Origin: Escherichia coli
GTDB lineage: Bacteria; Pseudomonadota; Gammaproteobacteria; Enterobacterales; Enterobacteriaceae
NCBI RefSeq assembly: GCF_003018115.1
Contig: NZ_CP027457.1
DNA length: 64,000 nucleotides
Strand: one strand, 5' to 3'
Under the pieces are notes generated by a model. That model had not been told where the DNA came from, searched no databases, and saw nothing but the letters and a program-made list of their open reading frames with translations. Of this stretch, positions 16,297 through 16,343 are shown in pieces. Every line of letters starts with the position of its first letter. The stretch's first letter is position 1. The translations under genes were made by a program, and so were the position numbers.

Positions 16297-16343
16297 GCGA
16301 ATCAGCGAATCAGCGAATCAGCGAATCAGCGAATCAGCGATCA
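16297..16343. repeat. Tandem octamer repeat (GCGAATCA) x5 plus a partial copy
   Basis: Read directly: gcgaatca repeated five times from 16297, then gcgatca. Confidence 0.9.

Follow-up and report, generated by a model that had tools for sequence, protein, structure and literature searches.

A hypervariable octamer array in decaying genomic-island DNA of Escherichia coli and its probable origin from a cryptic proto-repeat

The island and the sequence around the array

The window, i.e. the whole stretch of 64,000 nucleotides analysed here, begins with a genomic island of E. coli (positions 1-24915). This island carries cdiBA, lactate-utilisation genes, IS66 and autotransporter fragments, an SdiA-regulated gene and two zinc-ribbon genes, as well as a Gp2-like YagK/YfjJ gene, a 620-aa hypothetical gene, an HTH gene, a DUF3987 gene and an integrase. 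According to the annotation of the identical sequence in strain 2014C-4135, its first part (approximately 1-9200, minus strand) encodes cdiB, cdiA with an annotated tRNA-nuclease effector, a DUF6882 gene and lutABC/lldP. The 620-aa hypothetical protein (19569-21431, minus strand), encoded between the Gp2-like gene and the HTH/DUF3987 genes, gave no PHROGs or PADLOC match. ARAGORN detected no tRNA gene anywhere in the window, suggesting that the integration site is not an obvious tRNA.

Comparison with 2014C-4135 yielded 99.9-100% identity over the island part and 95.8-98.1% over the core genes (efe, put, rut, agp-cbp and tor; 26171-58707), and the pga-dgcT-ycdU segment is missing or replaced. 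Against complete E. coli genomes, the core stretch reached ~96.7% identity at best. The occurrence of the same island in clearly different chromosomal backgrounds implies a recent horizontal transfer or recombination event, and the host of the window appears to belong to a divergent Escherichia lineage.

The array lies 3' of the two minus-strand zinc-ribbon genes, between them and the remains of an Rpn/YhgA-like gene (Table 1). Its surroundings had been described from the sequence alone as Cys-rich ORFs on one side and small hypothetical ORFs on the other, which was right: the former are the two Zn_ribbon_11/DUF7828 genes (16483-17290, minus strand) and the latter are pieces of the broken Rpn/YhgA-like gene (15504-16087). 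The second zinc-ribbon gene is frameshifted in the island variant of the window (variant A) and intact, with 141 aa, in a second variant (variant B; L168/L171), and the Rpn/YhgA-like gene is in pieces in every carrier seen. On the minus strand downstream of the array, the sole gene-like features are a five-codon remnant and this broken gene; on the plus strand, there is only the antisense of the zinc-ribbon genes.

The five-codon remnant starts with a GTG at 16248-16246 on the minus strand and corresponds to a 65-aa YagK/YfjJ C-terminal fragment in other islands. In the intact islands of Nissle and W46, the conserved non-coding block on the minus strand is followed by this 65-aa ORF, with a complete Gp2-like gene coming next. 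The window retains no more than five codons of the ORF, and from there on the sequence is that of the Rpn-like remnant. The 65-aa CDS, annotated as 'YagK/YfjJ domain-containing' or 'inovirus-type Gp2' (L003 3819-4016 and L004 2819-3016), aligns with no more than the last ~50 residues of the family domain and of a full-length Gp2-like protein; its remnant in the window is at 16234-16248. Judged by these alignments, the 65-aa YagK/YfjJ CDS annotated in many genomes is a C-terminal gene fragment and not a small gene. PHROGs and PADLOC searches with the neighbouring proteins returned one PHROG of unknown function, for the Gp2-like protein, and nothing else. A search of viral contigs with the zinc-ribbon protein gave two loci, both without the block anchors, and the literature search on the YagK/YfjJ/zinc-ribbon module yielded nothing relevant.

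Table 1 Features at the array locus (positions in the window)
Feature	Position	Strand	Basis
Broken Rpn/YhgA-like (Transposase_31) gene	15504-16087	-	N-terminal piece 15890-16087, C-terminal piece 15504-15776
Left end of inter-island homology (from ~16229-16233) and five-codon ORF remnant	16229-16248		Sequence comparison
Conserved non-coding block 3' of the second zinc-ribbon gene	16249-16482	-	Alignments
Spurious ORF over the array, 'hypothetical protein' in relatives	16274-16408	+	Annotation, frame comparison
Inverted repeat TGTGGT-N8-ACCACA	16275-16294		Alignments, predicted helix
Five perfect GCGAATCA units, variable part of the VNTR	16297-16336		Sequence, TRF score 88, 4-16 units in other isolates
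Terminal imperfect unit GCGATCA	16337-16343		Sequence, allele alignments
Perfect 8-bp hairpin ACGGTGCG-CTTT-CGCACCGT, directly right of the array	16343-16362		Allele alignment
Second zinc-ribbon gene, Zn_ribbon_11/DUF7828	16483-16910	-	PGAP annotation of identical sequence, Pfam
First zinc-ribbon gene, 127 aa, DUF7828 and Zn_ribbon_11	16907-17290	-	Annotation, Pfam

Direct reading of the window sequence gives five copies of GCGAATCA in tandem without a single mismatch. They are followed by GCGATCA, an imperfect terminal unit that equals GCGAATCA minus one A, contains GATC, is unchanged in all array alleles and is present too in the single-unit precursor alleles described below. TRF reported positions 16297-16340 with a period of 8, 5.5 copies, 100% matches and a score of 88, the top score in the window, and a scan of the whole 64 kb for perfect tandem repeats (unit 4-12, at least three copies) returned this array as the sole match. 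The five perfect 8-bp copies and the partial copy that the earlier note had placed at 16297-16343 are hence borne out by both the sequence and TRF. Outside the array, GCGAATCA occurs once in the window (36805-36812, minus strand), with ~2.9 copies expected by chance. The probability of 36 consecutive period-8 matches arising by chance was estimated as ~64000 x 0.25^36, i.e. ~1e-17, and the array is therefore not a chance feature.

The same octamer was also encountered far from E. coli, since arrays of three or more GCGAATCA units turned up in species-representative genomes unrelated to it, in at least 120 stretches (L006-L125). In the Burkholderia cepacia complex, many species share an apparently orthologous VNTR of 3-11 units with the flanks ...gccgcgccgaatca and gcgacggtacagg.... 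In Thermoflexus, Anaerolineae, other Chloroflexi MAGs and Latescibacterota MAGs, GCGAATCA arrays occupy some 8-12 different loci per genome and reach 16 perfect or ~30 degenerate units in which GCGAATCA, GCGAATGA and GCGAATCG are mixed. In those phyla, the octamers look like a genome-wide dispersed repeat, the context of which shows no relation to the E. coli locus.

Copy number among isolates

Only one of the 5426 complete E. coli genomes carries the array, and many draft assemblies do; further carrier assemblies were found by exact-sequence look-up of the neighbouring proteins, of which the 127-aa and 141-aa zinc-ribbon proteins are indexed in 120 and 78 blocks of the assembly collection, respectively. 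The 18 independent E. coli sequences compared have unchanged flanks at this locus and contain 4, 5, 6, 7, 8, 9, 10, 12, 14 or 16 units, which, with one allele containing variant units, makes 11 distinct alleles. The window has five units and strain 2014C-4135 has ten at the same site, and over 13 kb the two differ by one SNP, one G-run indel and the 40-bp change in the array. Further assemblies of island variant A carry 10, 7, 5, 7, 16, 8, 9, 4, 10 and 6 units as well as the variant-unit allele, and those of variant B, which is marked by TTGATACC in the left flank and in which both the second zinc-ribbon gene (141 aa) and the upstream autotransporter are intact, carry 14, 7, 10, 8 and 12 units. 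Five contigs with 5, 7, 16, 8 and 10 units (L157, L158, L159, L160 and L165, respectively) show no SNP against the window in 2 x 1200 bp of flank, so that isolates with an SNP-free 2.4-kb flank are up to 11 units apart. The variant-unit allele (L162, variant A) consists of three GCGAATCA units followed by five GCAAATCA units, showing that a mutated unit has itself been amplified. Every change in copy number involves whole units with identical junctions across alleles, and the copy numbers have no preferred value. All residue classes modulo 3 occur among the alleles, indicating that no reading frame is constrained.

The array thus consists of head-to-tail copies of high identity (five perfect and one imperfect unit; 100% matches in TRF) and is polymorphic by whole units among near-identical sequences (4-16 units in 18 sequences). 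Judging by these alleles, it is a genuine hypervariable VNTR that is older than the split of island variants A and B. The proposal in the earlier note that slipped-strand mispairing changes the copy number is strongly supported by the 11 alleles, the whole-unit steps and the SNP-free flanks. Two findings had been named there as refuting its interpretation of the repeat, an invariant copy number across isolates and the lack of a nearby promoter; the first is contradicted by the range of 4-16 units, whereas the second agrees with our scans, in which no nearby promoter was found.

Differences in copy number could in principle be artefacts of assembly or sequencing, given that assembly from short reads or in Logan broke off at the array in some contigs (L164, L169, L170 and L179) and that a 1-bp G-run difference at 16049 is confined to the PacBio assembly of 2014C-4135. 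However, ordinary reads are long enough to cover an array of 32-128 bp, the 11 alleles come from independent assemblies with clean whole-unit steps and the same junctions, and the count of ten units was obtained in three independent records, with other counts recurring too. We therefore give an artefactual origin practically no weight. The G-run itself (16042-16050) lies in the N-terminal fragment of the Rpn-like gene, where the 1-bp difference sets 2014C-4135 apart from the window and from all other variant-A contigs, which have the G-run of the window; most probably, long-read sequencing introduced a homopolymer error into the 2014C-4135 assembly. The same difference alters the small ORF that is called there (65 aa versus 42 aa).

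On the plus strand, no stop codon interrupts any of the three frames within the array, and gene callers have annotated 'hypothetical proteins' of 44, 52, 60 and 68 aa over it (16274-16442, plus strand; L155, L159, L160, L165, L168 and L176). The repeat region of the ORF reads ESANQRIS, and its C-terminus and length shift with the copy number. The array might be regarded as a translational switch in a small plus-strand gene, in which steps of 8 bp would shift the frame, and a GGAG located 11 nt upstream of the GTG at 16274 would fit such a gene, as do the three open frames and the annotated ORFs of 44-68 aa. Against this, the ORF gave no family match in our searches, the C-terminus of the 5-unit allele is wholly different from that of the 10-unit allele, the ATG variants in other alleles stop after three codons and the O111 product is an unrelated sequence of 33 aa, and no promoter was found by consensus scan. 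Translational phase variation is thus exceedingly improbable. An intragenic phase-variation repeat was rejected on the grounds that the ORF lacks a family match and is not conserved across alleles. The ESANQRIS-repeat peptides in protein databases have been seeded by this annotation artefact over the array.

The conserved block and its single-unit alleles

The array is an insertion within a conserved non-coding block, ~240 bp long in the window and 246 bp in Nissle, that is present in 1133 of the 5426 complete E. coli genomes; ~1100 other block-carrying genomes have no array. Homology to ~1100-1900 other E. coli genomes begins at ~16229-16233 and extends through the zinc-ribbon genes. The block holds several inverted repeats. 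One of these, TGTGGT-N8-ACCACA, belongs to the most conserved piece of the block, GGTTnATTGACACCACAGTGCG, and ends 2 bp left of the array; its predicted helix is kept across alleles, with one-sided changes only. The hairpin ACGGTGCG-CTTT-CGCACCGT on the right of the array is reduced in other alleles to a 6-bp stem with uncompensated mismatches. A heptamer, GGTGCGA/TCGCACC, is found in four copies and in both orientations, making alternative pairings possible (window 16249-16482; Nissle L005 3017-3262).

The block folds somewhat better than shuffled sequence, with MFE z values of -2.2 to -2.8. RNAalifold on 12 alleles gave a covariation term of ~0, counting no compensated pair on one strand and 2 on the other, and an Rfam scan (E<=1) of the window from 10 to 24 kb returned only one chance miRNA match, located elsewhere. 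A structured non-coding RNA was accordingly rejected, with no relevant Rfam match and no covariation support. Nor could the block be read as a decayed Gp2 gene, as tblastn with five Gp2 proteins produced only noise (E>=0.03) in the block; the adjacent 65-aa ORF matched the Gp2 C-terminus with E=2e-5. The block conserved in ~1100 genomes, with z values as given above and the recurring GGTGCGA, may nevertheless be functional, and the array would then interrupt a functional element.

Most of the 18 aligned block alleles carry, at the position of the array, three imperfect GCGRAT motifs spaced 8-9 bp apart. In the Nissle allele, these read GCGGATTCG GCGAATCC GCGATCACGG and include a perfect 9-bp palindrome, GCGGATTCG-G-CGAATCCGC, and the CB9615 allele reads GCGAATTCG GCGAATGC GAGATCACGG. 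The allele of O111 strain RM9322, GCGGATTCG GCGAATCA GCGATCACGG, contains exactly one unit, followed by the partial unit of the window. Single-unit alleles were also present in seven metagenome contigs, six of the O111 type and the seventh (L141) a related version, and none of the seven is expanded. Scanning metagenomes with the left junction gave no matches, and scanning with the right junction gave single-unit alleles and unrelated chance matches only. An ancestral state is therefore represented at the orthologous site by the single-unit allele, with degenerate versions elsewhere. Alleles of two or three units were not seen among the sequences compared, and for this reason we infer the early steps of the expansion.

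Based on these alleles, it is proposed that an ancestral non-coding block 3' of the zinc-ribbon pair in a CP4-like E. coli island held three imperfect GCGRAT motifs. The direct repeat GCGA...GCGA, 8 bp apart, in GCGGATTCG GCGAATCA GCGATCACGG would be the obvious substrate for a first duplication, in which slippage may have doubled the 8-bp unit. Once several perfect units were in place, gains and losses of whole units would have become frequent. The flanks in the island of the window, comprising the frameshifted zinc-ribbon gene on one side and the five-codon remnant with the broken Rpn-like gene on the other, are decaying, and the copy number would thus drift neutrally. The persistence of a single-unit precursor in related islands likewise suggests that the array grew by slippage from the cryptic triple GCGRAT motif. 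Having weighed the alternatives discussed above and below, we consider it likely that the array is hypermutable and neutral, a VNTR that arose out of a cryptic proto-repeat within island DNA undergoing decay. The tandem structure, the polymorphism in whole units, the precursor allele and the pseudogene context are seen directly in the sequences, and slippage as the mechanism and neutrality are what we infer. Variant B runs counter to neutrality in one respect, namely that both zinc-ribbon genes are intact and the array lies ~140 nt past the stop codon with no recognisable terminator in between, suggesting that in this variant the array is probably co-transcribed as a 3' UTR.

Regulatory readings and comparison with known repeats

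Consensus scans of the window and of the intact relative Nissle revealed no sigma-70-like hexamer pairs in or beside the array and no terminator-like sites in the block. The suggestion that the repeat alters promoter spacing could consequently not be upheld, as no hexamer pair was found, the array itself contains nothing resembling a hexamer and an array of 32-128 bp is too long to sit between -35 and -10 elements. Promoter-spacer contingency repeats are, for example, dinucleotide or homopolymer tracts between the -35 and -10 hexamers of surface-protein genes in Haemophilus or Neisseria; such tracts occupy the promoter spacer or the stretch immediately 5' of an intact gene, whose expression they turn on and off. 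The present array resembles them as a slippage-prone simple repeat in non-coding DNA, but it is longer than any promoter spacer and has neither flanking hexamers nor an intact target gene. This class was rejected for the lack of hexamer pairs, the length of 32-128 bp and the presence downstream of only the five-codon remnant and a pseudogene.

A protein-binding array, also put forward in the earlier note, fared no better, because contiguous 8-bp units of freely changing number, which most block alleles lack, are unlike iterons or operators. Iterons of plasmid and phage origins are typically ~17-22 bp long, helically phased, fixed in number and conserved in sequence. Like them, the array consists of short direct repeats near genes for a putative replication-initiator-like protein, the genes adjoining the block having a weak, sub-threshold match to the replication-initiator-like domain REP_ORF2-G2P; unlike them, its 8-bp units are contiguous, free in number and absent from most block alleles. 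An iteron or protein-binding array was rejected in view of the 4-16 units, the tolerated variant unit, the contiguous 8-mers and their absence from ~1100 block-carrying genomes. In a broader form, the array might be an amplified GCGRAT triple motif that serves the island's Gp2-like (YagK/YfjJ) protein or its zinc-ribbon proteins as a binding or cis site, such as an origin or an operator. The three ancestral motifs at 8-9 bp spacing, the 9-bp palindrome in Nissle, the other inverted repeats and recurring GGTGCGA heptamer and the sub-threshold domain match would be in line with such a site. However, the ancestral motifs vary between alleles (GCGGAT, GCAGAT or GCGAAT; GCGAATCC, GCGAATGC or GTGAATGC), the palindrome and the array-side hairpin show uncompensated changes or deletion in several alleles, and motifs and palindrome are deleted altogether in the H10407-type allele. 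Moreover, the contiguous units lack helical phasing and range freely from 4 to 16, the variant unit was amplified without any sign of constraint, and no experimental or literature support was found, which makes a binding site very unlikely.

Among documented repeats, the nearest counterpart is the VNTR of the colibactin (pks) island, (ACAGATAC)n, which occurs in 2-20 copies in the clbR-clbB intergenic region of E. coli and sits in the mapped 5' UTR of the intact regulator clbR; between 5 and 19/20 repeats, reporter output and colibactin by-product change ~2-fold, expression being higher at 20 repeats (PMC7364221). Both are perfect head-to-tail arrays of an 8-bp unit in the non-coding DNA of an acquired E. 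coli island with a strain-dependent copy number of similar range (2-20 and 4-16). In contrast to the pks repeat, the present array has no mapped or predicted promoter and no intact downstream gene, and its unit sequence is unrelated. With this precedent in unit length, copy range and island setting, the array could be a regulatory VNTR whose length tunes the level or stability of a transcript, either in the 3' UTR of the Gp2/zinc-ribbon operon (minus strand) or in the 5' part of a transcript that reads in the direction of the Rpn-like gene. The lack of a terminator-like site from the zinc-ribbon stop codon to the array makes read-through plausible, and the upstream zinc-ribbon genes are intact in variant B. 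On the other hand, no promoter-like site was found in the window and Nissle scans, every carrier seen has the downstream Rpn-like gene in pieces, a frameshift disrupts the adjacent zinc-ribbon gene in the variant of the window, most block alleles lack the array, and its copy numbers show no preferred value. We regard regulation by array length as unlikely. It is slightly less likely still that the block is a functional cis element (a 3' UTR or regulatory RNA, or a Gp2-like binding or origin site) on which the array acts as a clbR-like rheostat; if so, sister cells would differ, through the tuning by the array, in how strongly their zinc-ribbon/Gp2 module is expressed or how active it is. Were the array length to affect the zinc-ribbon/Gp2 genes, this would be a second octamer rheostat of the clbR type and a first entry point to an island module that is both widespread and uncharacterised.

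As far as the sequence can tell, nothing suggests that the array controls a gene, and it has all the properties expected at this level of a slippage-driven VNTR. Biologically, it is an ordinary slippage-prone repeat in decaying island DNA, which will not surprise a specialist. Its value is of a different kind: it explains both the contig breaks at its position and the 'hypothetical proteins' of 44-68 aa that track the repeat number, and it offers a clear natural example of a VNTR arising from a cryptic proto-repeat, the single-unit precursor of which persists in related islands.

The array motif was not found in the searched literature. Short-unit arrays at neutral VNTR/MLVA loci of E. coli and Salmonella, including S. 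Typhimurium, are used for subtyping. Unlike these, the present locus is in no typing scheme found and is confined to strains with one island allele. Like them, it changes by whole units far faster than by point substitution, spreads variant units and separates near-identical isolates, and with at least 11 alleles among isolates with identical flanks it could serve as a high-resolution typing marker for island-carrying E. coli lineages.
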